Notes: a model not told the origin generated them from the letters alone. Counted from the first letter of the stretch, positions 9,545-41,467 are shown. The stretch: 42,013 nt of DNA from Paracoccaceae bacterium (GCA_024226455.1 JAAELR010000446.1:1-42013), one strand, 5' to 3'. Made by a program: numbers and translations.

Positions 9545-9844
9545 CGGTCCATAACGGGACCGAGGGCCTGATGACAGACCTGGTGCGCCTGCGCGATCAG
9601 GGGTGACCAATAGGGCCGGTTCGGGGCAACCCGGGCCGGCCTGTTTCATGGTCCGGGAAAAAGATTCCTCATTGCAAAGTCGCCGGTACCTGTCGATGCC
9701 GGTCCAGTACCTGCTGGCGCATGGGCACCACCGATCGCCGGGCTTCGGCCCGGCAAAGCCGAACTCGGTCAGCGGATCGCGCGAACAGGGCGGCAAGGGT
9801 TGGCCGAGGACATGGGCCGGGGGATCTATCTGATTGGGTGTCGT

Positions 9845-10873
9845 TCAGGTTTCCTGCGGTTGCCAATCTACCCAGCGGCAGTGGAAATCGGCGCGGCCAA
9901 GCTGCAGGCGACGGTCGCCCGGCCAGAGCCGCAGGGTCAGGGCGGCGCCGGACGTGTCGTCGTCAGCCTCCATTCCGAACCAGGCCAGCGGGGCGTCGGG
10001 GGTGGCGCGGGTGCCGGCGGTCTCGATCAGCGCGGTGGCGCGCAACTGGACGGCAGGGGGGAAATACTGCCAGGCGACAGTGTGACATATCAGGTGGGTG
10101 CTGCCCGGGGCGGGATCTGCCAGCCGGGTGGCCAGCCAGTCGGCGGCGTCGGCCTGGTCGACGGTGGCGCGGGCGCCGGCGATGGCGGCGCGGGTACGGT
10201 TCAGGCGGTCCGGCTGGTCGGGCCAGATATAGGCCAGAAGCCGGGTAGTTCGGGCCGGATCGAGCGGGGTCAGGTCGGTGCCGCGGCGCCCGGTCACGGT
10301 TGGCGTGGTGGGTGGTGGCGGCGGGCCTTTCCAGTCTGGGCGAAGGGTCAGGGCGGGTGCGTCCGGGCCGAAGCGGCATTCGCCGATCTGCAGCGTGTAA
10401 CGGTCCCACATCAGGTTCAGCCCGGCGCTGGCGCCAAGCTCGGAGAGTGTGAGCGGCAGGTGGTATTCGGTGGTCAGCCAGTGGCCCAGGGCGATCAGCA
10501 CGGCACTGCGGCCGACCTCGTTGGTTTGCGGCGGGCGGTTGAGCCAGGCGTCGATGCGGGGCGCGTGGGTGGTGAGAGCGGCGTCGATGGCCGACCATAG
10601 GGCATCGTCGGGGGTGGCGGCGTTCGGCGGATAGTGGGCGGCCAGCGCCGGGGCGGCGCCGTCCAGTACCAGCCCGTGCAGCGCACCCGCGATGCGCAGC
10701 GGCACCGACTGGGTCCGGGCCGAGATGTCGCCGGGCCATTGCAGCAGGCGGTCTGTCAGGGGGGTGCCTTGCCGCAGGCGGTCGGCCAGAAGGCGCAACA
10801 GGCGCGCGGTGAAGGGCGAGCCGAGCCGGCGGCAGGCGATCGTCTGGGTACGCAGGGCGTGGCGCAGGCTCAA
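9845..10873 (-). CDS. Hypothetical protein, probably DUF2332 family
   Basis: 342-aa ORF with TTG start overlapping the pth stop (TTGA). Family assignment is from memory of the DUF2332 N-terminal pattern (...GSPFTARLLRLLADRL...) and is not verified. Confidence 0.5.
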   Translation of the reverse strand: MSLRHALRTQTIACRRLGSPFTARLLRLLADRLRQGTPLTDRLLQWPGDISARTQSVPLRIAGALHGLVLDGAAPALAAHYPPNAATPDDALWSAIDAALTTHAPRIDAWLNRPPQTNEVGRSAVLIALGHWLTTEYHLPLTLSELGASAGLNLMWDRYTLQIGECRFGPDAPALTLRPDWKGPPPPPTTPTVTGRRGTDLTPLDPARTTRLLAYIWPDQPDRLNRTRAAIAGARATVDQADAADWLATRLADPAPGSTHLICHTVAWQYFPPAVQLRATALIETAGTRATPDAPLAWFGMEADDDTSGAALTLRLWPGDRRLQLGRADFHCRWVDWQPQET

Positions 10874-25823: not shown

Positions 25824-27362
25824 TCAGCTTTCCGGCGGGGTGCCGCCGGCCTTTGTGCGTGCTTCGATCCACGCATTCATGGCCTCGCACCTCGCGCCGT
25901 CAAGGGCCGGGCGCCGGTCGGCGGAAAGGATGTCCTTCCAGACTTGCGTGGCGCGGGCGCTGGCGTCGCGGCTGCCGCGCTCGGCCCAGGTGCCGAAATT
26001 GGCGTAGTCGTGCAGGATGGGCTGATAGAACTCGGTCTGATAGCGCTCCATGGTCTGGGCGGCGGCAAAGAAATGCCCGGCAGGCGGGGTCTCGGCCAGG
26101 GCGTCGAAACCGATCTCGGCCGCACTTGCCCGGGCACCGGCACAAAGCTCGGCCACCATGTTCAGCACCTCCACGTCACAGATCAGCTTTTCATAACCGA
26201 CCGTCAGACCGCCTTCCAGCCAGCCCGCCGAGTGGATGATCACCGTGGCTCCTGCCATCAGGCAGCCCCATAGCCCGAACTGGTTTTCGTTTGCCGCCTG
26301 CACGTCGCCCAGGTTCGCCGCAGAGCCTGCCGCCGAACGCCAGGGCAGGCCGATCAGGCGCGCCAGTTGGCCCGCCGCCAGCGAGGCCTGAAAATGCGCC
26401 GGTGTGCCGAAGGCGGGAGCGCCAGACTTCATGTCGACATTGCTGGTGAAGGTGCCATAGCAGACCGGCGCGCCGGGTCTGGCGAGCTGGGTCAGGGTGA
26501 TCGCGGCCAGCGCCTCGGCATGGCTCAGCGTGATGGCGCCCGCCACGGTGATCGGCGCCATGGCGCCCATCAGGGTAAATGGCGTGACGATAGCGACCTG
26601 GCGCGCGCGGGCGAAGTCGATCAGCCCCTGGGCCATGGGCCCATCCAGCACCCTTGGGCTGTTGGTGTTGATGATGGTGTAGCAATGGGGCTCGGCGTGA
26701 AACTCCGCGTCCGTCAGGCCGCGGAAATCGCGCAGCATCTCGAAGCTCTCGGTGACCTGCGGCGTGCCGCGGGCATAGACGAAGGGCAGCTTGTCGGTCA
26801 GCGTCAGCTGCGCCTGCATGGTGAAATAGTGGCGCAGGTGGGTGGCGACGTCCTGCGGTTCGATCAGCGGCGGCATCATCTGCAGCACGTCGAAGTGGTG
26901 GGTGATCTGCAGCAGTTCGCGAAAATCGCGCGCTGTGCCGGGGCGGCGGCCCCGTTCCAGATCGCTGGCATGCGGGGCGCCCGCACCGGGCTGGAAGTTG
27001 AGCGCGCCAAGTTCCAGCAGCACGTCGCGGTCGCGCGCCCCGGCGCGGGCAGTGATAGAGCGCGGCGCGGTGGTCAGTGCCGCCTCGACGATCTCGCGGC
27101 CGATATGCACCATTTCGCCCTCGACCCGCGCGCCGGCCTGTTTGAAAAGCGCCCGAGCCTCTGGCAGCAGCACCTTGACGCCCAGCTCTTGCAGCGTCCT
27201 CAGCGACGCCTCGTGCATGGCGGCGATCTCGTCGGCGCTGAACACGTCCATCGGCGGGAACGGGTTGCGCAACTGGCGGTAGTTCACCTGGCGCGCGGGC
27301 ACAGCGTCGCCACGCGGCGCGCGATTGCGGCGGCCCCTGGTGGGGCCTTCGTTCTCTCTCAT
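25824..27362 (-). CDS. Trimethylamine methyltransferase (MttB) superfamily protein, non-pyrrolysine type (quaternary amine/betaine methyltransferase-like)
   Basis: 512 aa. Arg-rich N-terminus typical of MttB-family members. No in-frame amber codon. Start overlaps the upstream gene stop. Confidence 0.85.
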   Translation of the reverse strand: MRENEGPTRGRRNRAPRGDAVPARQVNYRQLRNPFPPMDVFSADEIAAMHEASLRTLQELGVKVLLPEARALFKQAGARVEGEMVHIGREIVEAALTTAPRSITARAGARDRDVLLELGALNFQPGAGAPHASDLERGRRPGTARDFRELLQITHHFDVLQMMPPLIEPQDVATHLRHYFTMQAQLTLTDKLPFVYARGTPQVTESFEMLRDFRGLTDAEFHAEPHCYTIINTNSPRVLDGPMAQGLIDFARARQVAIVTPFTLMGAMAPITVAGAITLSHAEALAAITLTQLARPGAPVCYGTFTSNVDMKSGAPAFGTPAHFQASLAAGQLARLIGLPWRSAAGSAANLGDVQAANENQFGLWGCLMAGATVIIHSAGWLEGGLTVGYEKLICDVEVLNMVAELCAGARASAAEIGFDALAETPPAGHFFAAAQTMERYQTEFYQPILHDYANFGTWAERGSRDASARATQVWKDILSADRRPALDGARCEAMNAWIEARTKAGGTPPES

Positions 27363-29767
27363 CCCCGCATCGCCTTGCCTTTGGGGTCATAGGGCGAGGC
27401 GGCGATGACGCGGGCCTTGCGCAGAGCGCCCACCACATGCACCGACAGCTCGGTGCCCTCGACCGCGCGATCGCGGTCGACCAGCGCCATGGCGAGCGAT
27501 TTTTGCAGGTGGTGGCCGTAGCCGCCCGAGGTGACAAAGCCCACCTTGGCGCCATCCGCCGCCCAGACCGGCTCATAGCCGCTGGCGTCAGAATCGCCCG
27601 GCTCGATCTCCAGCGTCACTTGGCATCGCCCGGGGCCGTCTCCGTCGCGTTCCGCCAGCGCGGCCTCGCGGCCTGTGAAGTCGCCCTTGTCCCAGTCGAT
27701 CCAGCGGTCCATGGCGGTCATGGCCGGTGTGCGGTCCTGGGTAAACTCCGCCGACCAGATGCCAAAGCTTTTTTCGATCCGGGTCGACAGCATGGCGTTG
27801 AAGCCGACCTCGCGGATGCTTTCATCGGCCCCGGCCTGCAGCAGCATGCGGCGCAGGGCGATGTGGTCGCCCATGCGGCAGTTGATCTCATAGCCCATCT
27901 CTCCGGTGACACTCATGCGCGCCACATGGGCGCTGACCAGACCGATATCGAATTGCCCGCAGCCCATGAAGGGCAGGGCGCCGATATCCTGTTCGGCCAG
28001 TTTTTCTACCACGGCGCGGGATTTGGGGCCGATGACTGCGAAACCGCAAATCTCCTCGCCCAGATCGCGGATGTCGACACCGTCGGCGAGATGGTCGTTG
28101 AACCAGCGCATGTGCCAGGCGCGCAAATAGTAGCTGCCCATGATCCAGTACCTGCCATCGCCCCAGTTCAGCAGCGTCAGGTCGCCCTTGAGCCGCCCGT
28201 TCGGCGCCAGCATCACCGCCAGCCGGGCCCGGCCCGGTGCGGGCAGTTTGGTCGAGAACAGCTTGTCGAGCCATTGGGCCGCGTTGGGCCCGGTCACCTC
28301 GTAGCGCGAAAAGCCGGTGATATCGAGCAGCCCGACACCGGTCCGGACCGCCTTGCATTCTTCGGCCACGATGGGAAAGGCGTTGGAGCGTTTCAGCGTC
28401 TGGGTTTCCTCAAAGCCATGCGGCGCGAAGTAAAGCGGCACTTCCAGATCCCAGCTAACCCCCCATTTGCAGCCCGCTTGCCCCATGGCGTCATGCGCCG
28501 GTGCCATCTTCAGCGGCCGTCCGGCGGGCAGCTGCTCGTTGGGGTAGGTCATCACGAAACGGCGGCTGTAGAACTGGCCGGTGGTTTCGCGGATATAGCG
28601 CTTGTTCTGGGCATAGTCGCCGTAGCGCGCCACATCCATCGACCAGGCGTCGGCCTCGGGCTCGCCCTCGATCATCCATTCGGCCAGCGTCTTGCCGACG
28701 CCGCCGCCCTGCAGGAAACCTGCCATGACGGCGCAGGCGCTCCAATAGCCTTTCTTGCTCGGGACCGGACCCACCAGCGGGTTGCCGTCGGGCGAAAAGG
28801 TGAAGGCGCCGTTGACCCAGGTCTTGATGCCTGCGTCCTGAATTGCCGGGTAACGTTCGAAGCCCAGCGTCAGTTCGTTCTCGATGCGGTCGAGCTGCTC
28901 CTGAAACAGCTCCTCGCCGTAGTTCCACGGCGCGCCGTCCATGGCCCAGTGTTCGTGGTTGATCTCGTAGATGCCGACCAGAACGCCCTGCTGGTCCTGG
29001 CGCATATAGGTGAAGCCCTCCAGATCGACGGTCATCGGCATCTCGAAATCCGACGCGGCAATCTGGGGTACCGTGTCGGTCACGAGATAGTGGTGCTTGA
29101 GCGGGCTGACCGGCAGTTCCACCCCGGCCATGCGCCCCACCTGCTTGGCCCAGAGACCGGCGGCGTTGACCACGTGCTCGCACGCTATGGTGCCCTTGTC
29201 GGTGACCACCTGCCAGCCGTCGGCGGTCTGGATCAGCTCTTCGACCTTGGTTTGCTCATAATACTCCGCGCCGCGCTTTTTGGCGGCGGTGGCATAGGCC
29301 TGCACGGTGCCGGTGGTGTCGAGATAGCCCTCGCGGTCGGCCCACATCGCCCCCAGCACGCCATCGGTGGACATGATCGGGCAGCGTTTCTGCGCCTCTT
29401 GCGGGCTCAGCAGTTCGCAATCATCGATGCCGATCGACTGGAAGATGCGGTAATTGGCCTGCAGCCATTCCCAGCGCTCGGGCGTGCCGGCCAGGGTCAG
29501 CCCGCCGGTCATGTGCAGGTTGATATGCTGACCGCTCTCCTTTTCGATCTCGCTGAGAAGGTCGATGGTATAGGCCTGCAGGGCGGCCATGTTGGGGTCA
29601 GCGTTCAGCGCATGGATGCCGCCCGCGGCGTGCCAGCTGGAACCGGAGGCCAGCCGCCGCCGTTCCAGCATGACCACGTCGGTCCAGCCGAATTTGGCCA
29701 GATGGTAAAGCACCGAGGCCCCAACCACCCCGCCACCGATCACAACGACGCGATACTGCGATTTCAT
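27359..29767 (-). CDS. FAD-dependent oxidoreductase fused to a GcvT/aminomethyltransferase domain (dimethylglycine/sarcosine dehydrogenase family)
   Basis: MKSQYRVVVIGGGVVGASVLYHLAK dinucleotide motif. Approx. 800 aa with a C-terminal T-protein-like folate-binding region. Confidence 0.9.
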   Translation of the reverse strand: MKSQYRVVVIGGGVVGASVLYHLAKFGWTDVVMLERRRLASGSSWHAAGGIHALNADPNMAALQAYTIDLLSEIEKESGQHINLHMTGGLTLAGTPERWEWLQANYRIFQSIGIDDCELLSPQEAQKRCPIMSTDGVLGAMWADREGYLDTTGTVQAYATAAKKRGAEYYEQTKVEELIQTADGWQVVTDKGTIACEHVVNAAGLWAKQVGRMAGVELPVSPLKHHYLVTDTVPQIAASDFEMPMTVDLEGFTYMRQDQQGVLVGIYEINHEHWAMDGAPWNYGEELFQEQLDRIENELTLGFERYPAIQDAGIKTWVNGAFTFSPDGNPLVGPVPSKKGYWSACAVMAGFLQGGGVGKTLAEWMIEGEPEADAWSMDVARYGDYAQNKRYIRETTGQFYSRRFVMTYPNEQLPAGRPLKMAPAHDAMGQAGCKWGVSWDLEVPLYFAPHGFEETQTLKRSNAFPIVAEECKAVRTGVGLLDITGFSRYEVTGPNAAQWLDKLFSTKLPAPGRARLAVMLAPNGRLKGDLTLLNWGDGRYWIMGSYYLRAWHMRWFNDHLADGVDIRDLGEEICGFAVIGPKSRAVVEKLAEQDIGALPFMGCGQFDIGLVSAHVARMSVTGEMGYEINCRMGDHIALRRMLLQAGADESIREVGFNAMLSTRIEKSFGIWSAEFTQDRTPAMTAMDRWIDWDKGDFTGREAALAERDGDGPGRCQVTLEIEPGDSDASGYEPVWAADGAKVGFVTSGGYGHHLQKSLAMALVDRDRAVEGTELSVHVVGALRKARVIAASPYDPKGKAMRG

Positions 29768-29828
29768 GGCCAATCCTCCTGCGGCATGCCTTGTGGGATT
29801 TGCCATAGTCCGTCGCCAGCCGGAAATC

Positions 29829-29844
29829 TAGACATTTGTGTCTA
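29829..29844. promoter_or_regulatory. Inverted repeat TAGACA-TTTG-TGTCTA 62 bp upstream of the dehydrogenase operon start; candidate TetR operator
   Basis: Perfect 6-bp arms with a 4-bp spacer, placed in the promoter region of the operon that encodes its own TetR regulator. Confidence 0.35.
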
Positions 29845-30192
29845 TTGCCCGGGCTGCGGGCCGGGGCGCCTGTGGTTTCTGTGTGGAGGTGGGTTGAAAG
29901 AGTCGTGGCGGCTTTGGTCCGGAACGGACATTGGCACGTAGCGCCAACGCGCGGAATCAAGGGCCGCAGGCCCGCCGCGCGATCGCCAGACCGCCCGCAG
30001 GGCTGGCGATTTGTCGAGGCTCCCGCATTGCTCATAGCTTGTTCGGAGTTCCCGCGGTAAAGTACTCCGCCCCAGTGGCGGATCGCCACCCCGCGTCTGG
30101 CAATCGCGCGGCTCATCTCTCGAACGCCCGCTTCAGACCAGTTTCGCCGATTCCGGCGCGCGCCTCTCTTGATCCTGCGGTACCGCTGCCGG

Positions 30193-31023
30193 TCAGGTGG
30201 TGCGCAGGCCCAGAATCTCGCGGGCCTGGGCGGGCGTGGCGACGGGGCGGTTGTATTTCGCGCAAAGCTCGACTGCACGGGCAACAAGCGCCGCGTTCGA
30301 GGGCGCCAGCCTGTCGCGGTCGAGGCGGACGTTGTCTTCCAGCCCGGTGCGGGTGTGGCCGCCCTGCGCGATGCTCCATTCGTTGACCAGTATCTGCCCG
30401 GCGCCGATACCGGCGGCGCACCATTCGGCATCCGGCGCGTGACGCTTCAGCGTTTCGATGTAGAAATCGAAGACCGGCTTGTCCACCGGCATGGCGTTCT
30501 TCACGCCCATCACGAACTGCACATATAGCGGCCCCTCGATGCGCCCATCGGCCGCCATCTTCGCGGCCTGCAGGATTTGGCTGAGATCGAAGGCCTCGAT
30601 CTCGGGCTTCACGTGGTACTTTCGCATCTCACCAGCCAGCCAGTCGACCAGATCGGGCGGGTTTTCATAGACCCGGGTGGGGAAATTGCTCGAGCCCACG
30701 GTAAGCGAGGCCATGTCGGGGCAGAGCGGCAGCATGCCGCCGCGTTCCCCACCGGCGCCCGACCGCCCGCCGGTGGAAAACTGCACGATCATCCCGGGGC
30801 AGTGCTTTTCCAGCCCTTGTTTCAGGGCGGCGAATTTTTCGGGGTCGCTGGTCGTGCTGCCGTCGTCGTTGCGCACGTGGCAATGGGCGATCGAGGCGCC
30901 TGCCTCAAAGGCCTCGTGGGTCGAACAGATCTGTTCGGAAAGAGTGATCGGCACGGCGGGATTGTCTGCCTTTGTGGGCACAGAGCCGGTGATTGCGACG
31001 CAGATGATGCAAGGTTTGGACAT
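30193..31023 (-). CDS. BKACE family enzyme (3-keto-5-aminohexanoate cleavage enzyme-like, DUF849)
   Basis: 276 aa. MSKPCIICVAITGS...HCHVRNDDGS... matches Kce/BKACE, including a dehydrocarnitine-cleavage-type signature. GGAGGCTCC SD before ATG. Confidence 0.85.
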   Translation of the reverse strand: MSKPCIICVAITGSVPTKADNPAVPITLSEQICSTHEAFEAGASIAHCHVRNDDGSTTSDPEKFAALKQGLEKHCPGMIVQFSTGGRSGAGGERGGMLPLCPDMASLTVGSSNFPTRVYENPPDLVDWLAGEMRKYHVKPEIEAFDLSQILQAAKMAADGRIEGPLYVQFVMGVKNAMPVDKPVFDFYIETLKRHAPDAEWCAAGIGAGQILVNEWSIAQGGHTRTGLEDNVRLDRDRLAPSNAALVARAVELCAKYNRPVATPAQAREILGLRTT

Positions 31024-31527
31024 GGAGCCTCCGGATTTGCCGGAACGTTACGCCGGGTTCCGGGCGGGCGCAAATCTTTGCGGAGGATCTGACCCAAAGT
31101 TTCCGGGGTTGGCCTGTTGCGGCACGGGGGCGGGCGGGCCTAGGCGTGGCCGGTTTCGCGGATGAATTCGGTCGGGACGCGGGCGTACCATGCTTAGTTT
31201 CCGACCCCGTGGCATGGCCGCGGCCGCAAACCCGGGGCCGCAGATAACACGAATCTCACATTCATGATTTTTAGTCTCCAGTCAAGTGTCCTTGTAGGCA
31301 ACGTCACGAAGGCGATACGCGGCAACTTACTTTTTCCGCGTATCGCGTTAAGGCTGGGTGCCGACGAGCGTGCGCGCCCTAGAGGGGAGTTCATCACATG
31401 CCTTGTGCGAAAAGGTGCGGCGATGGGTGCGGTTTGGGGGCGCTGTGGGGCGGGCCGCCGTCCAAGGCACCGGCGCTGACACCGCGCGCATCCGCGGTGG
31501 CGAGATCAGAGGACACCGGCAACGAGA

Positions 31528-31586
31528 AGGGTGGGCAGTTCTGCCCGCCTCAGTGCGGTATGTTGATGGGCAGTTCTGCCCACCCT
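31528..31586 (-). terminator. Terminator-like composite inverted repeat directly downstream of the EEP gene stop (two copies of GGGCAGTTCTGCCC within larger AGGGTGGGCAG...CTGCCCACCCT arms)
   Basis: 11-bp outer stem possible on the minus-strand transcript. The stop codon TAG sits at the edge of the structure. The downstream U-tract is weak. Confidence 0.45.
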
Positions 31587-32787
31587 ACGAGGTTCTGGCC
31601 CCGCCCATCCGGATATGCGCCATGATCTGGCCGTGGTCCGAGGCCAGCTTGTTATAGGGCGCTTCGGGGTGGCTGCCGTCGGTCAGATGGTCGTTCAGCA
31701 CGCTGAAATACTCCATGTTGCCGAGGCGCTCGGGATTATCGGGGTGAAAGTGGCGCGACATCAGGATCTGGTCGATCGACTCGAAATTGCCGCCGAAGGC
31801 CGCAGTATAGACCATGTCGCGCAAGGACTTGCGAACAAAGAGTTTCTCGGCGCTGTGCAGGCGCACTCGCTCGATATCCCCGGCGATCTGTTCCGCCTCT
31901 TGCCGACTGTAGCGGTCGTTGGGTTTTTCCGCGTCGTGGCGCCGCATCCAGGCGTAGTTCTTGAACGGGGTCTCGCCGGTGATGATCTCGGTCGAAACCG
32001 CGTGCTCGCCATCGTTCAGGTCGCCCAGCACCATCACCGGGCGGCCCCGGTCCAGTTCGTCAAGGATCAACCCGCGCAGCACCCAGGCCTCTGCCATGCG
32101 GCGCAGCCCGGCGCGCAAGGCCCCCAGCATCCGGCCATGGGCGTTATAGCGCAAAAGGTCGGCCTCGGGCGCGTGGGGCGCACCCTGGGGCGTGATGAAC
32201 TCGCCCAGCTTCGACTTCAAGTGGCAGTTGAAAATGCTGATCACCTGGTCGCCGACGGGCACGCGTACCTTCAGGATCGGGCGCGACAGGCGGTTGATGG
32301 TGAAACCGCCGGCACCGTCATGGCCAAGGTCGCGAAAGTCGATGGTCGGGGCCGGGTCCAGATCCTGCACGATCTCGGGCTCGCCAACAAAACCGAACCG
32401 CGACAGCGTCGCCACGCCGGGGCGGCGCTCTCCGGGCTCTCCATCGTTGGAATTCGGCGCAAAGGCCAGCGAGGCACCCTCGTAAAGCTCGGATTTCAGT
32501 TTCCGGAAAATCGCCTTTCTGCGGTACTTTTTCGAGCGGTCGGGCAGGGCGGCCTCGTTCAGTTCGCGGCCGCGCGCATCGGCCTCTTCGATCACCGCGC
32601 GCAGGGCGTCCTCTTCGAATATCTCCTGCAAACAGACGATATCGGCGTCCAGCGACAGCAACTGATCGGCCAGCCAGTCCTGTTTCCAGGCATGTTCCTC
32701 GGCGGTGTATTTCTCGAAGCGGTAATACTCCTTCTCGGCCCCGATGAGGTTCTTGACGTTGAAGCTGGCGATGGTGAAGTCTGTCAT
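31585..32787 (-). CDS. Endonuclease/exonuclease/phosphatase (EEP) family protein
   Basis: 400 aa. N-terminal IASFNVKNL and internal ...VMVLGDLND... / ...SDHGQIMA... are EEP catalytic motifs. GGAG SD. 11 nt downstream of the macro gene stop. Confidence 0.8.
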   Translation of the reverse strand: MTDFTIASFNVKNLIGAEKEYYRFEKYTAEEHAWKQDWLADQLLSLDADIVCLQEIFEEDALRAVIEEADARGRELNEAALPDRSKKYRRKAIFRKLKSELYEGASLAFAPNSNDGEPGERRPGVATLSRFGFVGEPEIVQDLDPAPTIDFRDLGHDGAGGFTINRLSRPILKVRVPVGDQVISIFNCHLKSKLGEFITPQGAPHAPEADLLRYNAHGRMLGALRAGLRRMAEAWVLRGLILDELDRGRPVMVLGDLNDGEHAVSTEIITGETPFKNYAWMRRHDAEKPNDRYSRQEAEQIAGDIERVRLHSAEKLFVRKSLRDMVYTAAFGGNFESIDQILMSRHFHPDNPERLGNMEYFSVLNDHLTDGSHPEAPYNKLASDHGQIMAHIRMGGARTS

Positions 32788-32798
32788 TACGGAGCCTT

Positions 32799-33263
32799 TC
32801 AGGCGTTGTGGTCGGGCAGCACGACCAGCGTATGGTCAAGTCCGGCAAGCTCTGTGTCAATCAGCGGCGCGATCACAGTCCAGTCACCGCCGGCCAGCCC
32901 GGCGCCGATCAGCGGATAGCCGATGCGCGCGTCGGGGAACCGTTCCGCGATGGTGCGAAAAGCGCTGGCGATGGCGTCATAGTCGGCCTTTCGCCCAACT
33001 CCGCGATAATCGAACTGGGTGTAGGCGTTCACGATTGTGAGGTCGTGGTCGCCCACCCTGACGTGGGCGCAGGAGATCGTCCCAAGCTTGTCGCGGTCGC
33101 CTTTCGGTGTGTCCCGGTCGGCCTGCAGCGCCTGGGGAAAATCGCGGCCGATGATCTTGGCGATACCGGCACCCATCGTGTGAATACAGTTGCAGCCATG
33201 CACGATCACGTCGAACCGCCCGGCCTTTGCCAGCGCGATCAGATCTCCGGTGATGGTCTTCAT
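32799..33263 (-). CDS. Minimal macro domain protein (ADP-ribose / Appr-1''-p binding or processing type)
   Basis: 154 aa. DVIVHGCNCIHTMGAGIAKII and IGYPLIGAGLAGGD correspond to the two Gly-rich phosphate-binding loops of macro domains. Start overlaps the upstream stop (ATGA). Confidence 0.6.
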   Translation of the reverse strand: MKTITGDLIALAKAGRFDVIVHGCNCIHTMGAGIAKIIGRDFPQALQADRDTPKGDRDKLGTISCAHVRVGDHDLTIVNAYTQFDYRGVGRKADYDAIASAFRTIAERFPDARIGYPLIGAGLAGGDWTVIAPLIDTELAGLDHTLVVLPDHNA

Positions 33264-34243
33264 CCGCCGTCTCGGTATTTCTGCAAGGCTTTGGCGAACA
33301 TTACCGCATCCACGTTGCCGCCAGAGGCCACCGCGATCACCGCGTCGCCCGCCACGGTGCCCGGGTGATAAAGCGCCGCCGCCAGTGCCACCGCGCCGCC
33401 GGGTTCGATCACCACCTTGAGCCGGGCGAAGGCGGCAGCCATGGCGCGCAGGCAATCGTCCTCGCTGACCACCATGCCGGGGCCGCAGAGACGGGCCATG
33501 ATGGGGAAGGTGATCTCGCCCGGCGATGGCGTGATGATGGCGTCGCAGATAGAGCCGCTGGCCCTGGCGTTGCTCTCTATCCGGCCCGAAGCCAGCGAGC
33601 GCGCGGTGTCGTCGAATTCCTGCGGTTCCACCGGGCGCGGCCGCAGCCCGGGCGCGTGCGCCTCCAGCGCCAGGGCGATACCGCTGGTCAGCCCGCCGCC
33701 GCCGCAGGGGATCAGCACGTCGGCGGTCTCGACCCCGGCCCGCGCCGCCTGTTCGGCGATCTCCAGCCCCGTCGTGCCCTGCCCGGCGATCACCTGCGGC
33801 TCGTCATAGGGCTTGATCAGCGTCAGGCCGCGTTCGCCGGCCAGCACGGCGCCGATCTCTTCGCGGCTTTCAAAGTTGGCACGGTCATAGGTGACCACCT
33901 CGGCGCCCAGCCGCCTGGTGTTGTCCAGCTTCATCGCAGGCGCGTCGGCAGGCATGACGATGACGGCGGGAATGCCATGCATGGCCGCGGCCAGCGCCAC
34001 GCCCTGGGCGTGGTTGCCGCTGGAATAGGCGATGACGCCGCGCTTGCGCGTGGCCTCGTCCAGCGCCGAGACCGCCGAATAGCCGCCGCGGAACTTGAAG
34101 CTGCCGGTCTGCTGCAGGCATTCGGTCTTGACCAGCACCCGCCTCCCGGCGATCTCATCCAGAAACGGCGAGCTTAGCAACGGCGTGCGCCGGGCATGGC
34201 GCTTCAGCCGCCCGGCGGCGGCCTCGATCAGGTTTATGTTCAA
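33260..34243 (-). CDS. PLP-dependent serine/threonine dehydratase family enzyme
   Basis: 327 aa. ...KTECLQQTGSFKFRGG... (PLP lysine motif SFKxRG) and GGGGL glycine loop. Start overlaps the upstream stop. Confidence 0.85.
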   Translation of the reverse strand: MNINLIEAAAGRLKRHARRTPLLSSPFLDEIAGRRVLVKTECLQQTGSFKFRGGYSAVSALDEATRKRGVIAYSSGNHAQGVALAAAMHGIPAVIVMPADAPAMKLDNTRRLGAEVVTYDRANFESREEIGAVLAGERGLTLIKPYDEPQVIAGQGTTGLEIAEQAARAGVETADVLIPCGGGGLTSGIALALEAHAPGLRPRPVEPQEFDDTARSLASGRIESNARASGSICDAIITPSPGEITFPIMARLCGPGMVVSEDDCLRAMAAAFARLKVVIEPGGAVALAAALYHPGTVAGDAVIAVASGGNVDAVMFAKALQKYRDGG

Positions 34244-35070
34244 CGCATCACCTCCAGCCAGTCGCGGATCGCCGCAACGGCCTGCGGTTCATCGAGAAAC
34301 GGCACATGGCCGCGGTCGGGAATCTCGGCAAAGATCATCTGCGGCATCCGCCGCCGCATTTCTGCCGCCGTCCCAACCGACAGCAGGTCGGAATTCGCCC
34401 CGCGGATCAGCGCCAGCGGCAGCCCGGTCAGGGCGTCGAAGACTGGCCAGAAATCGGTCGGCGCCGGGTCGGCCCCGGGCTTGGCGGCGTCGAAAATGCG
34501 GGCTAGGTCGGGGTCATAGTTGATCTTCAGCCCGTCGCCGGTTTCGATCAGGTGCATGCGCACCTCGCGCATCCAGCGCTCACGGGGCACATTGCTGAAA
34601 TCGCGATAGAAGGCCTCGCGTGCCGTGGCGGCTTCTTCATAGGTTTTCTGGGGTGGGTTCCTGCCCAAATAGCGCTGGATCAGCGCCAGCCCGCCGGGCT
34701 CTACCACCGGCCCGATATCGTTGAGACAGACGCCAAGCAGCCGGTCCTTGGCACCCTCCGCCAGCGCCATCGCAATCAGCCCGCCGCGCGAGGTGCCCAG
34801 CACCGCCGCCTTTTCCAGCCTCAGATGGTCTAGCAGCGCCAGCGCGTCGCGCGCCTCGACCGGCACGGTGTAGGTGGCGGGATCGGCCCAGTCCGACTGG
34901 CCGCGGCCACGGTAATCCATGCGGATCAGCCGCACATCGGCAAGGCAGGGCGCCACATAGTCGAAATCGGTGCTATTGCGCGTCAGCCCCGAAAGACACA
35001 GCACCGCAAGGCCCTCGCCCTCGTCGCGATAGGCCAGTTCCGGTCCGTCGAAGGTTTTGAATTTCTGCAT
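34240..35070 (-). CDS. Alpha/beta-fold hydrolase
   Basis: Start MQKFKTF at 35070 overlapping the HAD stop. Nucleophile-elbow-like GTSRGG. Approx. 276 aa. Confidence 0.8.
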   Translation of the reverse strand: MQKFKTFDGPELAYRDEGEGLAVLCLSGLTRNSTDFDYVAPCLADVRLIRMDYRGRGQSDWADPATYTVPVEARDALALLDHLRLEKAAVLGTSRGGLIAMALAEGAKDRLLGVCLNDIGPVVEPGGLALIQRYLGRNPPQKTYEEAATAREAFYRDFSNVPRERWMREVRMHLIETGDGLKINYDPDLARIFDAAKPGADPAPTDFWPVFDALTGLPLALIRGANSDLLSVGTAAEMRRRMPQMIFAEIPDRGHVPFLDEPQAVAAIRDWLEVMR

Positions 35071-35756
35071 CAGTTCGCCTTTGCAATCTCGGGTATCGTG
35101 GTCAGGTCGCAAAGCACCCGCGCCGGTTTCCAGGGCAGCCGGTCCATCGGCTCGCCGGCCCGGTTGACCCAGACCGAGTGGAACCCGAACCCTGCCGCAT
35201 GCGCCGCGTCCCAGCCGTTTGACGACACGAACAGCACCTGATCCGAGGTGGTGCCAAAGCGGTCGTTGACCATCTGGTAGACAGAAATGTGCGGCTTGAA
35301 GACGCCCACGTCCTGCACGCTAAGCACATCGTCCAGCAACGCGGCCACGCCGGCGCTGTCGACTGCGCCCTGCAGCATCTTCGGCTCGCCGTTCGACAGG
35401 ATCGCGGTGGCGAAACCGGCCTGTTTCAGAGCCGCCAGCATGGCGGGCACTTCCGGGTAGGCGCTGAGTTCGAAATAGAGTGCCAGCAGGAGTTCGCGCA
35501 GTTCCGGATCGTCCAGCGCGCTGGCCTCGAGCGCCCAGTCGAGCCCGTCCTGTGTCACCTGCCAGAAATCGGTATGGGCATCGGCCACCGCGCGCAGCCA
35601 GGTGTATTGCAGCTGTTTCAGCCGCCAGTCGCCTGCCACCTTTTGCCAGACCGCGGCGAAGGCTTCGCGGCCCGGTTCGGTGGCGGCCTCGCGGGCGGCG
35701 GCAGCGACGTCGAACAGCGTGCCATAGGCATCAAAGACGCAAGCCGTGATCGGCAT
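35070..35756 (-). CDS. Haloacid dehalogenase type II ((S)-2-haloacid dehalogenase, HAD superfamily)
   Basis: MPITACVFDAYGTLFDV (DxYGTL nucleophile motif), ...KPH..VY..., FVSSNGWD..GA..FGF. Close match to the L-DEX family pattern. The 431-aa ORF in the track is an upstream in-frame artefact. Confidence 0.85.
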   Translation of the reverse strand: MPITACVFDAYGTLFDVAAAAREAATEPGREAFAAVWQKVAGDWRLKQLQYTWLRAVADAHTDFWQVTQDGLDWALEASALDDPELRELLLALYFELSAYPEVPAMLAALKQAGFATAILSNGEPKMLQGAVDSAGVAALLDDVLSVQDVGVFKPHISVYQMVNDRFGTTSDQVLFVSSNGWDAAHAAGFGFHSVWVNRAGEPMDRLPWKPARVLCDLTTIPEIAKAN

Positions 35757-35870
35757 GGGCGGGCTCCTTTCGGGCGCAAACTGACAGATGGGCCGCAGAA
35801 GGGAAAGGGGCGACCGGGCGGGGGGAATCGGGTAGAGTGGCGCAGGTGCAATGGAGAGGGAATGTATGTG

Positions 35871-36263
35871 ATGTCGGACAATCATGGGCTGGTCTGGTGG
35901 ACCGAACTGATGACCCGCGATCTGGAGCGGGCGGTGAAATACTACGCCGATACCTGCGGCTGGAGCTATGACACGATGGATATGATGGACGGCTCTGGCA
36001 CCTACTACGTGGCCAGGGTCGGCGACCGGCCGGTGGCCGGGCTGATGGACATGTCGTCGATGCAGCATCTGGCCGAGGTGCCGCCGCACTGGTTTTCGTA
36101 TTTCGCCGTGGATGACGTGGAGGCAGCCGTTGGTGCGACGCGCGCGGCTGGCGGGCAGGTGATGCGAGAGCCCTTCGACGTGGCGGGAATTGGCCGTATC
36201 GCGATCCTGACCGATCCGACCGGTGCGGCGATGGGCCTGATCACCCCGGCACCGAAGGGCTGA
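35871..36263 (+). CDS. VOC (glyoxalase/bleomycin-resistance fold) family protein
   Basis: Approx. 130 aa. GGAGAGGG SD. Divergent from the HAD operon. Start ambiguous among ATG 35862, GTG 35868 and ATG 35871. Confidence 0.7.
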   Translation: MSDNHGLVWWTELMTRDLERAVKYYADTCGWSYDTMDMMDGSGTYYVARVGDRPVAGLMDMSSMQHLAEVPPHWFSYFAVDDVEAAVGATRAAGGQVMREPFDVAGIGRIAILTDPTGAAMGLITPAPKG

Positions 36264-36286
36264 GCGCGCACAAAGCGCCATGGGCA

Positions 36287-36322
36287 ATGCGGGGACGACC
36301 GCAATGGTCGTCCGGGTTGTCT
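36287..36322 (+). terminator. Terminator-like hairpin after the VOC gene (GGACGACC-GCAAT-GGTCGTCC + GGGTTGTCTGTT)
   Basis: 8-bp perfect stem followed by a T-rich stretch. Confidence 0.5.
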
Positions 36323-36566
36323 GTTCGGGCGCGAGCCGGCGGTCTTCATGTTCGCCCGGGCGCACCGGCTGGGCTGGTGGATTTCGTCGCGGTCAGGCCC
36401 GGCGGATGACGCATCGCTGGTAAATCGAGGCGCCTTCGGCGCCGCTTTGTTCTCTCCATCTTCGCCTTCGGCTTCGACGGAGCCTGCCTCGCGCGTTGCG
36501 GCGTTGCGCGCCGGAGCCTGCGTTTTGCAGATTGCGGGCGGGTGAACATCCGGCGTATGCGGGTTC

Positions 36567-37931
36567 ATGACCGAACGCCCGGCATATCGCGCCCATGCCC
36601 GCACCCTGCTGGTGCTGGGGTTGCCGTTGGTCGGCAGCCATCTGGCGCAGATCGCCATCGGGGTGACCGACAACCTGATGCTGGGCCGTTACAGCGTCGA
36701 GGCGCTGGCTGCTGCGACGCTGGCGTTTTCAACCTATTTCGTGTTGTTTCTCGTCGGCTCGGGCTTTGCTTTCGGGGTGCTGCCGCTGGTTGCGGCTGCG
36801 TCGGCCGAAGACGACGTCACTCAGGTGCGGCGGGTCACCCGGATGGGGATGTGGATCTCGGCCGGATTTGGCGCGGCCACCATGCCGCCGCTGATCTGGT
36901 CGGAGCCGATCCTGCTGGCGCTGGGCCAGAAGCCGGTGATCGCGGCGCTGGCGGGGGACTATCTGGCGATCTTTGCCTTCGGCATGGTGCCGTCACTGAT
37001 CGTGATGGTGCTGAAGAGCTACCTTGCGGCGCTGGAACGCACCCAGGTGGTCCTTTGGGTCACCGTGGCGGTCGCGGTGCTGAATGGGGTGTTGAATTAT
37101 GTGTTGATCTTCGGCCATTTCGGGGCACCGGAACTGGGACTGGTGGGGGCGGCCATCGCCTCGGTGATCATGCAGGTTGCGGCTTTCGCGATCATGGCGG
37201 TCTATTGCGCGTGGGCGACACCGCAATACGCTTTGTTCCAGAGGCTCTGGCGGTTCGACGGCGAAGGCACGCGCGGTGTGTTTCAGATTGGCTGGCCGAT
37301 CGGGCTAACCATGCTGGCCGAAAGCGGGCTGTTCTCGGCCACGGCGCTGATGATGGGCTGGCTGGGGGCGCTGCCACTGGCGGCACACGGCATCGCGACG
37401 CAACTGGCCGGGATGACCTTCGTGGTGCATCTGGGGTTAAGCCAGGCCGCCACGGTGCGGACGGGCCGCGCCCTGGGCCGCGGTGACGGGGCCGGTCTGC
37501 GCCAAGGGGCTCTTGTGGCGGTGGTGCTGTCGGTGGGCTTTGCGCTGATGGCGGTGGTGCCGTTCCTGATGGTGCCCGAATTCCTGCTGGGCCTGTTTCT
37601 CGACAGTGCCGACCCGGACCGCCCGGCGATCATCGCCGTCGGGGTGACGCTGCTGGCGGTGGCGGCGGTGTTCCAGCTTATGGACGGGGCGCAGGTGATC
37701 GCGCTGGGGCTGCTGCGTGGCGTGCAGGACACCCGCGTGCCGATGATCCATGCGGCGGTCTCGTACTGGCTGATCGGCATTCCGGCAAGCTATGTTGCGG
37801 GGTTCTGGCTGGGCTGGCAGAGTGTCGGCATCTGGCTGGGACTGGTGCTGGGGCTGAGCTGCGCGGCCGCACTGCTTATGCACCGGTTCTGGACCAAAGG
37901 CATTGCCCGCGTGCCGTTGCAGACCGGGTGA
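36567..37931 (+). CDS. MATE family efflux transporter
   Basis: 454 aa, 12 TM helices. N-terminal ...LLVLGLPLVGSHLAQIAIGVTDNLMLG... typical of NorM/DinF-type MATE. Confidence 0.9.
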   Translation: MTERPAYRAHARTLLVLGLPLVGSHLAQIAIGVTDNLMLGRYSVEALAAATLAFSTYFVLFLVGSGFAFGVLPLVAAASAEDDVTQVRRVTRMGMWISAGFGAATMPPLIWSEPILLALGQKPVIAALAGDYLAIFAFGMVPSLIVMVLKSYLAALERTQVVLWVTVAVAVLNGVLNYVLIFGHFGAPELGLVGAAIASVIMQVAAFAIMAVYCAWATPQYALFQRLWRFDGEGTRGVFQIGWPIGLTMLAESGLFSATALMMGWLGALPLAAHGIATQLAGMTFVVHLGLSQAATVRTGRALGRGDGAGLRQGALVAVVLSVGFALMAVVPFLMVPEFLLGLFLDSADPDRPAIIAVGVTLLAVAAVFQLMDGAQVIALGLLRGVQDTRVPMIHAAVSYWLIGIPASYVAGFWLGWQSVGIWLGLVLGLSCAAALLMHRFWTKGIARVPLQTG

Positions 37932-38147: not shown

Positions 38148-38570
38148 CTATTCCCCGGCCAACCGCTTCTTGGCGGCCTTCTGCAGCCGGTCCGCCTTTT
38201 TGCGCACCAGGACCGCGCGCAGATCGTGCATTGCCAGTAGCAGGGTGTCGGTGACCTCGTCGAGTTCGTCATCCGATGCGGAGGTGTTCACCCAATGCGC
38301 GGTCTGGTTGAGATAGTCGACCGCCCGGTGGATGTCATCGATCTTGCGCTGCTCCAGCACCACATTGCGTTCGGTCATCCAGTCGGTGATTGCTGCCATA
38401 TCCGCCTTGGAAAGGATCCGGTCGCCATGCGGCTTGATCTGACCGCTGCGGATGTTGACCACCGCGATCTGGTCCATTTCGATACGCCGCTGGCGGCTCT
38501 GGGTCTCGACACGGAACACGAAAGCGCCGTTGTCGCGGACACGAAAATAGTATTCCGGTAGATCGTTCAC
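38148..38570 (-). CDS. Hypothetical protein (140 aa), no family recognised
   Basis: Clean ORF convergent with the MATE gene and divergent from the chemoreceptor. Soluble, charged. Confidence 0.45.
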   Translation of the reverse strand: MNDLPEYYFRVRDNGAFVFRVETQSRQRRIEMDQIAVVNIRSGQIKPHGDRILSKADMAAITDWMTERNVVLEQRKIDDIHRAVDYLNQTAHWVNTSASDDELDEVTDTLLLAMHDLRAVLVRKKADRLQKAAKKRLAGE

Positions 38571-39028
38571 GTGGGGTTTCCCTAACTGGGTCTGCCATTC
38601 AATCTATTTTGCTGCAGGGTAACTGTCAAAGGCTCGATAGGGGATCTGCCGCATTGCCGCGGGCGCAAGGCTCAGCGGTGGGTCGGCGGCCATGGCGAAT
38701 GGCCTGACAGGCACCGCAACCAGGTCAAACCACGGGTCTTGGACGCCACAGCAGCCCTGGGGATCACGGCCCGCCGGTCTCCTTTTTAGCGAGTGCCCGC
38801 TGTGCGGGACGTGGACGAAGCCGCTGTCGCGGCAATGGTGCTTGTGGCTGGCGGCGGGCGGCCCGCCTATCCCATATGGATCAGGGTCTTGGGCGGTTTG
38901 GCGCCCGAGGGCGGGGTGCCGTTTCACCGGCGTTTGCGGGCTTGGGGTATTCGCGACCACCGAGGTCGTTAAATGAATTTTCATCGTACACATTTAGTTT
39001 TCCGTTCAAACTACAAATCGGGTATAAA

Positions 39029-41467
39029 ATGTCGAGATCTCTTTCGGTCCAGAAATTGTCCGTAACGTTGGTCTCGATCATCGTTGCGATTGGCGTCATC
39101 CTGTCGCTCGGGTCGTTATACAGTTTTGTCCAAATCGGCCGGTCGCAAGACGCATGGACAACCTACCAGATCGCGAAATCGGCGCGCGCACGCGCCGTTT
39201 CTTCGGTTGTCTCGGCCATGGGCTATGACGGGATGATCCACCAGTTCAAGAACTATGTTCTGCGCCAGGATCAAGGACGGGTCGCAAAAATCCAAACCCG
39301 CATAGGCGCGACACTGCAGGCGCTGGACGCGCTTGAAAACATCACCGGGTCTCAGGCGGAATCCGATGCCATCAAGAAGATCCGATCTGTTGCACAGGCC
39401 TATCTGGCGGCTCTGGCTACCGCGCAGCTGGAGGCCGCGCTGGGTCGTAGCCCGGCTGAAATCGACCAGCGGGTAAAGGTGGATGACGGGCCGGCGCTAG
39501 AGGGTCTTGAAACCCTCTTTTCGCATAAGCCGTCAAGTGAGCATGGGGGATCCTCCACCAAAGGCCGCCTATTGGGAGATCTACGGCGGACCATGGGATT
39601 TGGCGGCATGATCCATCAATTCAAGAACTACGTCTTGCGCGGGGACCAGCCGAGGATTGCAAAGGTCGAGACCGCGATCGGCGCGGCCCGCGCGGTTCTG
39701 GACGGATACCGGTCATTGCCTCTTTCCGACGATGAAGTCGCAGCCCTGAAGGCCATCGAAGGCACGATTTCGGCCTACGAGTCCGGTCTCGCAACAGCGA
39801 TCAGGCTGGTCAATGACGGGCGCAGCCCGCGTGAGATCGATTCTTCTGTCAAGGTCGCCGACAGCCCGGCGATCGAAGGTCTTGCCGTTCTTGAGAAGGT
39901 TATTTCCACCGAGACCGCGCAGGCACAGGGTGTGTTGACGGATGTTCTGGTTGCCACCCGGCTTTACAGCATCTTTGCGGCAATTGCAGTCGTGTTGCTT
40001 TTGTCGGGGCTTGCGATGACGGCCTACCTGTTGCTGGTGCGCAAAGTGGCACAGCCGGCGCGGCATCTCGCGGGTGAGCTTGAAAAACTGGCGGCGGGAA
40101 AGATCGACATCGACGTTGAAGACCTCATAGGGGATACCGAAATCGGTCTTATCGCGAGGGCATCTGGGACTTTCAGGCAGAACATCCTGGAATCCAAGGT
40201 GCTTGAAGAAGAAAAAGAAGCGGCGGCGGAACGTGAAAAGAAACTGCTTCAGGAAAACTCGGAACAAGAAAAGAAAGCGGCTCTGGAACGCGAGGAAAAG
40301 GCACGCGATGAGCGTGCCCGGCACCTGGAAGTGGAACGCGTCCAGCAACAGGTCGGAATAGTGATCGCCGCCGCCGCCGAGGGCGATTTCTCAAAAAGGG
40401 CAGAAGTCGACGTTTCCGACGAGAACCTTGCGAGAATGACCAATTCGATCAATCACCTTGTGGCCGGAGTGGAAACAAGCCTCGCCGAAACCGGCCGTGT
40501 TCTGGTTGAACTGACGAGGGGGAACCTTGGCGAACGAATGGAAGGTGAATACAAGGGCGTGTTCGCCGAGCTTCAGGACAACGTGAACCGGACCCTGGAA
40601 ACGCTCTCGGGGATGGTTCAGGAGATCGCCGAGAGCGGGCAGTCTGTAGCCGCGAATTCGGATGTTATTGGGTCGTTGGGCGACCAATTGGCCCGGGGCA
40701 CCGAAAAGAACGCGGCCTCTCTTCAGGAATCCGCGGCCGCTATCGAGACAATCAGCAGTTCCGTCAAATCGGTATCTGAAAACATCACCAGCACCAATGC
40801 CAGCGCATCGCAGGCCGAGGAGGATGCACGCGCAGGCCGGTCGGTTGCGCAACAAGCGGTCGACTCGCTGGATGAAGCCTCCAAGGCCACAGCAAGCATC
40901 GAGAATGTCGTTGGCGTCATCGAGGACATCGCGTTTCAAATCAATCTTCTCGCGCTGAACGCCGGTGTCGAAGCGGCGCGAGCGGGGGAAACCGGTCGGG
41001 GATTCGCGGTTGTTGCGTCAGAAGTGCGGGCCTTGGCACAAAGATCGTCCGAAGCCGTGGGGGATATCACCTCGATGGTTACGGAAACGACGTCTTCTAT
41101 GGAAAGAAGCGTTTCAATGGTAGCCGAAGCCATGGGAGCTGTATCGAATATCACAATCTCAATCGAGGCAATTTCCCAGCAAACGGAAAAGGCGGCCGAA
41201 GCTGTCGACAGACAAGCCAACGATCTGGCTGAAATCAGCGCGGCCATCGGCGAATTGGATAGAGAAACTCAGAAAAACGCGGCAATGTCGGAGGAAGTGA
41301 ACGCTTCCAGTCACGAGCTACGGAGCGAGGCTGCCAATCTGGAGGCATCAATCTCGAAACTCGATTCCGACAACGCCTCGCGTTCTACCGTGTCTTCCCG
41401 CCTTGTTCATCCAATTCCGCCGGAAACGTTGCGTGCTCCTGAAAGCGTTGTAGATTCAAGCTACTAA
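39029..41467 (+). CDS. Methyl-accepting chemotaxis protein with an internally duplicated periplasmic sensor module, HAMP and a Lys/Glu-rich coiled coil
   Basis: N-terminal TM helix. Two approx. 125-aa repeats sharing MG(Y/F)(D/G)[12 protein letters not shown]...GRSP(A/R)EID..VKV.D.PA(L/I)EGL. Second TM helix, then HAMP. Approx. 60-aa [15 protein letters not shown] coiled coil. MCP signalling domain ([35 protein letters not shown]). Confidence 0.9.

Follow-up and report, generated by a model that had tools for sequence, protein, structure and literature searches.

Gene content and organization

Here we report the organization, conservation and probable nature of a cluster of five genes in a 42,013-nt stretch of DNA from Paracoccaceae bacterium (GCA_024226455.1, JAAELR010000446.1:1-42013), which is referred to as the window. 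Five consecutive, co-directional open reading frames (ORFs) occupy positions 31585-35756 of the minus strand and encode, in this order, a haloacid dehalogenase (HAD), an alpha/beta hydrolase (ABH), a pyridoxal phosphate (PLP)-dependent enzyme, a macro domain protein and a phosphoesterase of the EEP superfamily. An initial annotation, made from the DNA sequence alone, had described the same five genes; the ORF map and a direct reading of the sequence found each of them where it had been placed, and profile searches upheld all five domain identities.

HAD (35756..35070, minus strand, 228 aa) is the first gene of the operon and is preceded by an AGGAG motif 9-13 nt upstream of its ATG. The start of ABH (35070..34240, minus strand, 276 aa) shares one nucleotide with the HAD stop codon (TGATG, in the context cTGATGc). 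The PLP gene (34243..33260, minus strand, 327 aa) begins with TTG, has GGAGG 9 nt upstream and overlaps ABH by 4 nt (TTGA, read as gTTGAa). The macro gene (33263..32799, minus strand, 154 aa), which sits at the PLP/EEP junction, overlaps the PLP gene by the sole true ATGA in the cluster, and an 11-nt spacer, AAGGCTCCGTA, separates it from EEP (32787..31585, minus strand, 400 aa), the last operon gene in the window. The three ATGA overlaps that had been annotated are thus one TGATG (1 nt), one TTGA and one ATGA; the 11-nt gap had been read correctly, and together with the overlaps it confirms that the co-directional cluster is tightly coupled. Independent gene calls on a relative contig (L081), whose macro protein is 99% identical to that of the window, gave the same gene order with the same 1-nt and 4-nt overlaps, and a Glyoxalase gene divergent from HAD. 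In the window, a divergent intergenic region of 105 nt (35757..35861) between HAD and a plus-strand VOC/glyoxalase gene (about 35862-36263) is presumed to contain the promoter, and a search of positions 30900-36600 against Rfam (E <= 1) gave no match. Since the genes lie on one strand, overlap or nearly adjoin and keep their order across taxa, the cluster can be classified from its sequence as a putative operon.

HAD, ABH and PLP enzymes

The HAD protein matches PF00702 (74.8 bits) and the NCBIfam equivalog model for haloacid dehalogenase type II (TIGR01428; 184 bits, cutoff 125), and its closest solved relative is DehIVa (2no4; 169 bits). L-2-haloacid dehalogenases carry a signature consisting of the nucleophilic Asp in DxYGT together with Arg, Ser, Lys, Tyr and Ser-x-Asn-x-x-Asp. 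In the alignment with DehIVa, the motifs FDAYGTL, WRxxQLxYxW, SNG, KP and SSNxWD were all matched, and with the TIGR01428 score above its cutoff the protein is a credible type II member of the L-2-haloacid dehalogenase family. It resembles both L-DEX YL of Pseudomonas (144 bits) and DehIVa of Burkholderia (169 bits), with which the signature motifs align, but unlike the window protein, neither enzyme has been described alongside the ABH, PLP and EEP genes of this operon. Among Rhodobacteraceae, 94% of the marine but 21% of the non-marine members have an (S)-2-haloacid dehalogenase (PMC5437341).

The ABH protein matches Abhydrolase_6 (65 bits) and Abhydrolase_1 (56 bits), and its closest solved relative is an uncharacterised protein (3bwx; 160 bits). 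Its nucleophile elbow reads G-T-S-R-G, and because the nucleophile is Ser, an Asp-nucleophile dehalogenase of the fluoroacetate or haloalkane type was ruled out. The PLP enzyme matches PALP with 241 bits, and its closest solved relatives (1ve5, 5cvc, 1v71) are serine racemases or catabolic Ser/Thr dehydratases, so that it is predicted to be a fold-type II enzyme of the serine racemase/Ser-Thr dehydratase group, which is a broad assignment only. Two narrower identities were rejected. The top NCBIfam model, threo-3-hydroxy-L-aspartate ammonia-lyase (NF005454), scored 313 bits and lies under its cutoff of 452, which counts against this ammonia-lyase/dehydratase, and the model for BhcB (NF045641) scored 236 bits against a cutoff of 550.

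EEP protein

The EEP protein matches PF03372 with 45.2 bits (cutoff 24.5) and was modelled with a pLDDT of 82. Its catalytic residues (N10, E55, D256, N258, D384, H385) are invariant in 56 homologues, and the profile score, the fold and the catalytic Asn, Glu, Asp-x-Asn and Asp-His motifs establish it as a member of the superfamily. The catalytic Asn is found as early as residue 10, so there is no signal peptide. Family-specific insertions of about 160 aa in total interrupt the core fold (helices 59-80, 216-246 and 295-320). The structural neighbours include Nocturnin, ANGEL2 and PDE12; the CCR4/Nocturnin/ANGEL2/PDE12, neutral sphingomyelinase, TDP2 and ExoIII branches are all only 10-20% identical to the protein, and none of them is favoured. 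With 572 representatives at E <= 1e-3 among 1.84 billion, the family is small, and the protein belongs to a small, uncharacterised subfamily of Mg-dependent EEP phosphoesterases. Homologues with 70-82% identity occur in many genera of Rhodobacteraceae. Two distant relatives (33-41% identical) are fusions, one with an N-terminal trypsin-like peptidase (P0246, 745 aa) and the other with a SLOG/LOG-like domain (P0292, 735 aa); such domain combinations are characteristic of systems for conflict or nucleotide signalling. Several entries of the EEP family (P0002, 504 aa, from a Sulfitobacter metagenome-assembled genome (MAG); P0071; and others) are named 'alpha-1,4 polygalactosaminidase', which is probably a propagated misannotation, as their domain content is PF03372 only.

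Macro protein

The macro protein matches PF01661 with 26.8 bits (cutoff 22). Its AF2 model (pLDDT 90) yielded 213 PDB matches at E <= 1e-3 in Foldseek, with macrodomains on top and TARG1, DarG, Poa1p, BT1257 and SCO6735 among the fold matches. Profile score and fold comparison both sustain the macro domain originally proposed, and its Gly-rich motifs were found at residues 22-35 and 114-122. Among proteins of solved structure, SCO6735 (5e3b, E = 5.8e-9) is matched best, with 2fg1 (5e-6) as a further match. Mutational analysis of SCO6735 identified Gln85, at the position of TARG1 Lys84 and DarG Lys80, as essential and Lys34 as important for activity on DNA, and it gives the roles of the conserved Asn27 and of Gly128 in the PB loop (PMC9411070). 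In the HMMER alignment with 5e3b, whose numbering was corrected for a 20-residue tag, Gln83, Asn25 and Gly122 of the macro protein align with Gln85, Asn27 and Gly128 of SCO6735. Because these three residues match and are invariant across 53 macro orthologues, the protein is assigned by sequence to the SCO6735/BT1257 subclass of ALC1-like ADP-ribosylhydrolases.

Like SCO6735, the window protein is a single-domain, stand-alone protein. It differs from SCO6735 in being only about 27% identical, in having a loop behind the catalytic Gln that is two residues shorter in the pairwise comparison, and in the setting of its gene within a hydrolase operon; in addition, Lys34 is replaced by Ala32, which makes the predicted activity on DNA uncertain. 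DarG belongs to the same ALC1-like class, and its models gave weak matches (39 bits in NCBIfam, where the cutoff is 250, and 37 bits in PADLOC). However, the window protein has 154 aa compared with about 340 aa in DarG, lacks the C-terminal DarT-binding domain and carries Gln in place of the catalytic Lys, and its gene is flanked by PLP and EEP instead of a DarT gene. A PADLOC scan of the five proteins returned this weak DarG-macro match only, with no DarT and no defence system. A role as a DarTG component was rejected because of the low score, the absent C-terminal domain and the lack of an adjacent DarT.

Conservation of the operon

At least 545 relatives of the EEP protein were confirmed in a genome scan, of which the best 80 loci (from species genomes) were searched with their 10-kb flanks by tblastn using the window proteins. 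The most frequent arrangement was HAD-ABH-PLP-EEP (49 of the 80 loci), followed by ABH-PLP-EEP (11), the five-gene order HAD-ABH-PLP-macro-EEP (8), HAD-PLP-EEP and HAD-ABH-EEP (4 each), EEP alone (2) and other arrangements (PLP-EEP, ABH-EEP; 2). Besides the 49 complete loci, 20 were counted as missing a single upstream gene. Upstream of EEP, HAD was present in 65 loci, and ABH and PLP were present in 73 each. The absence of HAD characterizes 11 Aliiroseovarius-type loci, that of ABH four Marinosulfonomonas-type loci and that of PLP four Cognatishimia-type loci, and in each case the remaining genes persist. The initial annotation had grouped all five genes as one operon; joint conservation is a property of HAD, ABH, PLP and EEP and does not extend to the macro gene, which is found in 8 of 80 loci.

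In most loci without a macro gene, the PLP stop codon overlaps the EEP start codon (ATGA, e.g. ...GGAGACGGATCATGACC). Phaeobacter has the same four genes, again without the macro gene. In Limibaculum, all four genes occur in the same order, with an EEP protein that is just 44% identical and with flanks unlike those of the other genomes (NAPRTase/VTT upstream, RmuC/MutL downstream); the persistence of the four genes in this different setting speaks for a real operon unit and against passive synteny. In many genomes, clustering of the ORFs revealed a wider synteny with fabA-fabB-fabI and an FKBP gene upstream. In 61 of the 80 loci, EEP is directly followed by a second ABH gene, located +1200 to +2030 from the EEP start (e.g. 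L091, 7300-8091). The window does not have this extension; here, EEP is followed by a terminator-like hairpin and then by a BKACE gene. The second ABH gene is often trailed by a third ABH gene, a gene for a Lyase_1 protein, and an MFS or ADH gene.

Distribution of the macro gene

The macro gene is absent from 72 of the 80 EEP-anchored loci. Where it is present, in at least five genera, it is always located immediately upstream of EEP. The ATGA that elsewhere starts EEP starts the macro gene in the window, so that the macro gene forms an insert precisely at the PLP/EEP junction. Macro-positive operons are scattered on the neighbour-joining tree of EEP (the window; Psychromarinibacter and Pseudoruegeria; Aliiroseovarius subalbicans; two Roseovarius groups), and the neighbour-joining tree of the macro proteins is unresolved and star-like, with copies from the operon and from elsewhere interleaved. 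A locus that is sister to a macro-positive one (L079) has a non-coding PLP/EEP spacer of 456 nt (9545-10000) in which 22 nt (91% identical) and roughly 18 aa from the 3' end of the macro gene are still recognisable, a sign that the macro gene was lost by decay. The history of the gene can be either one old insertion followed by many losses or a series of repeated gains.

Other, unrelated small ORFs occupy the same position in three further loci (L002, L065 and L073), and the PLP/EEP junction is a recurrent insertion site. The insert in L002 (4880-5420) encodes a protein of ~150 aa with an apparent signal peptide, and those in the two Thalassovita loci (L065 and L073, about 9400-9940) encode a protein of ~180 aa (MANIGKLTI...).

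Macro orthologues with 60-75% identity are numerous and occur in varied contexts: within the operon in Shimia biformata, after an ABC transporter in Sulfitobacter mediterraneus, after rpoC in Ruegeria halocynthiae, after an enoyl-CoA hydratase gene in Aliiroseovarius crassostreae, and isolated in Acinetobacter and in a Propionibacteriaceae MAG. A macro-anchored scan of metagenomes recovered 80 loci (L092-L171; 54-68% identity over about 150 aa), of which 57 were informative, with at least 500 nt downstream of the macro gene. EEP was found downstream in two of these 57, and ORF clustering around all 80 metagenome loci revealed no conserved partner gene. The G + C content of the contigs ranged from 0.29 to 0.71, and conservation across such diverse base compositions and taxa suggests that the protein is under strong constraint, is often transferred horizontally, or both. 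The macro proteins thus form a widespread, highly conserved family without a fixed genomic partner.

Interpretation of the locus

We regard the locus, with a probability of roughly 0.7, as a conserved four-gene HAD-ABH-PLP-EEP operon of marine Rhodobacterales that carries a facultative macro gene at the PLP/EEP junction. The four-gene core is conserved and translationally coupled, and the macro gene is patchy at the junction and independent of EEP elsewhere. Because EEP occurs without the macro gene in 72 of 80 EEP loci, and the macro gene without EEP in 55 of 57 informative macro loci, the two do not form an obligate pair; the locus contains no dedicated macro/EEP system, and the meaningful unit is not made up of macro and EEP. 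The gene combination had not been recognised as a described system, and literature searches likewise returned nothing on the operon, on the gene combination or on a link between macro and EEP.

As the macro gene takes over the ATGA-coupled start that otherwise serves EEP, we propose that it would simply be co-expressed with the operon. The core operon may serve to detoxify or scavenge small marine organic compounds by hydrolysis, a role to which the type II dehalogenase family of HAD, the marine enrichment of this gene (PMC5437341) and the flanking VOC/glyoxalase and MATE genes lend modest support. The substrate cleaved by ABH would be an ester or amide, and that of the PLP enzyme a hydroxy- or halo-amino acid, which it would deaminate or racemise. 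The EEP protein probably cleaves a small-molecule, lipid or specific repair phosphoester in the cytoplasm and not bulk DNA, since its cytoplasmic location, its constitutive presence and the lack of an immunity partner make a general nuclease less likely. By analogy with SCO6735, the macro protein would most likely remove ADP-ribose from thymidine in DNA or from Glu in proteins, and might act as housekeeping protection unrelated to the chemistry of the operon.

Several observations weigh against the four-gene reading. The EEP-anchored census is silent on how frequently HAD-ABH-PLP occurs without EEP. HAD, ABH and PLP are singly dispensable, which makes a strict linear pathway less likely and weakens any view of a single pathway. 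No NCBIfam equivalog model scored above its cutoff for ABH, PLP or EEP, and a scan for the sigma-70 consensus gave no promoter match for the operon. The SLOG/LOG and trypsin-like fusions hint at roles in nucleotide signalling or conflict for the wider EEP family, and the macro gene may have come to recur at one and the same junction in at least five genera because its co-expression with EEP was selected for.

The four core genes might also be mere neighbours in a conserved block of the core genome, without any functional relationship. The extended synteny, with fabA-fabB-fabI and FKBP upstream and the second ABH gene downstream in 61 of 80 loci, would fit such a block, as would the separate loss of any one of the three upstream genes. 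We consider it unlikely, because the stop/start overlaps are kept across genera and because Limibaculum retains the four genes between completely different flanks even though its EEP protein is only 44% identical.

It is rather improbable that macro and EEP constitute a two-enzyme module where both occur, in which an ADP-ribose derivative is released or dephosphorylated by the macro protein before EEP cleaves the phosphoester, or, alternatively, EEP processes nucleic acid after de-ADP-ribosylation. Such a module is supported by the constant position of the macro gene directly in front of EEP, which is shared by at least five genera from scattered parts of the EEP tree. The same applies to the structural neighbours of EEP, which include an NADP(H) 2'-phosphatase (Nocturnin), a 2',3'-cyclic phosphatase (ANGEL2) and PDE12, to the presence of the ADP-ribose-1''-phosphate phosphatase Poa1p among the fold matches of the macro protein, and to the fusion of a distant EEP relative with a SLOG/LOG nucleotide-binding domain. 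However, 72 of 80 EEP loci do without the macro gene and 55 of 57 informative macro loci without EEP, the EEP protein is equally conserved in macro-positive and macro-negative genomes (69-78% identity), unrelated small genes fill the same junction, and in L079 the macro gene has decayed next to an intact EEP. An ADP-ribose salvage or detoxification module embedded in a catabolic operon, which had been suggested for the window, loses its basis with the usual absence of the macro gene; an occasional functional link is possible. Of similarly low probability is a related proposal in which HAD-ABH-PLP-EEP is an undescribed pathway of marine Rhodobacterales, EEP acts on a nucleotide-derived or ADP-ribose-related phosphoester, and the macro gene has been recruited rather than hitch-hiking; the constant junction, the Nocturnin, ANGEL2 and PDE12 neighbours and the SLOG/LOG fusion hint at such a recruitment.

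Even more doubtful than the four-gene reading's other competitors named so far is a single linear pathway of all five enzymes for the catabolism of a halogenated or hydroxy-amino compound. Tight translational coupling and the joint conservation of four of the five genes, even in another chromosomal context, speak for it, but the macro gene is missing from 90% of the operons, HAD, ABH or PLP has been lost individually (in 11, 4 and 4 loci) with the other genes kept, and no known pathway model was matched; the version first put forward, in which the macro/EEP pair handles the end product, has no foundation in operons that usually lack the macro gene. That macro and EEP are antitoxin and toxin of a type II-like or defence pair within the operon, for which the weak DarG matches (NCBIfam 39 bits, PADLOC 37 bits), a possible nuclease activity of EEP enzymes and the trypsin-like or SLOG domains of distant relatives could be cited, is highly improbable, because EEP is normally present without the macro gene (which is missing from 72 of the 80 genomes, two of them with EEP by itself) and the two do not co-occur as a unit, EEP is vertically conserved with 70-80% identity across genera, the DarG score of 39 is far from the cutoff of 250 for a protein of 154 aa without the DarG C-terminal domain, no DarT or other PADLOC match exists among the five proteins, and the flanks are ordinary chromosomal genes.

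In the favoured four-gene reading, the locus is a conserved operon of an ordinary, if uncharacterised, kind that carries a passenger gene, and the macro protein joins the SCO6735/BT1257 subclass as a new member. The idea first put forward, of a new macro/EEP system or toxin-antitoxin pair, does not hold, which spares the corresponding follow-up effort. The conserved and coupled hydrolase/lyase/phosphoesterase operon of marine Rhodobacterales would be worth screening for fitness effects or biochemical activity in tractable strains such as Phaeobacter and Ruegeria, and it carries the type of haloacid dehalogenase gene that separates marine from non-marine Rhodobacteraceae. The macro protein represents a widely distributed stand-alone family (54-68% identical over 29-71% G + C) with a Gln-based active site like that of SCO6735, and this family may be a general guard against ADP-ribosylation of DNA or protein.

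Terminal repeat and neighbouring genes

A terminator-like inverted repeat (31528..31586, minus strand) starts at the EEP stop codon. Its arms (31528-31546 and 31568-31586) are 89% complementary, and its RNA folds with -40.5 kcal/mol (z = -2.5). The repeat consists of two palindromic GGGCAGAACTGCCC units that are 35 nt apart, followed by CCCUUCUCGUU. The counterpart in L081 has a single unit that forms a plain hairpin, GGGTGGGCAG-AA-CTGCCCACCC, followed by TTCTCGTT. Pairwise alignment of the window with L081 (7679-7720) places an indel of 35 nt (the duplicated palindrome plus 21 nt) at about 31547..31581 on the minus strand, with boundaries that are ambiguous within a direct repeat of 14 nt; the difference could be due to a duplication in the window or to a deletion between the direct repeats in L081. 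Given the single-unit hairpin in L081, the composite form represents a strain-level indel in a terminator-like hairpin. A repeat does follow the EEP stop codon, as had been noted, and its 'unusual composite' character comes down to this indel. The terminator scan did not flag it, because its loop exceeds the length that the scan allows. At zero mismatches, GGGCAGAACTGCCC occurs at this site only in the window and, among 171 loci, only in the near-identical relative L081; a dispersed REP-like element was rejected for lack of any other copy.

The flanks of the operon include a MATE exporter gene in addition to the divergent VOC/glyoxalase gene. Downstream of the operon, the minus strand (25824-31023) carries genes for a beta-keto acid cleavage enzyme (BKACE), an 815-aa DAO/FAO_M/GCV_T protein resembling dimethylglycine dehydrogenase, and an MttB-family methyltransferase, a set that is typical for the catabolism of quaternary amines of the carnitine or glycine betaine type. 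The distance between BKACE and EEP varies among relatives. At the other end of the window, an ORF of 140 aa (38148-38570, minus strand), for whose L081 counterpart no Pfam family is recorded, precedes an 863-aa HAMP/MCP chemoreceptor gene (38876-41467, plus strand), which lies in a region of low G + C content, as the value drops from about 0.65 to 0.57-0.58 in the last ~3 kb of the window.

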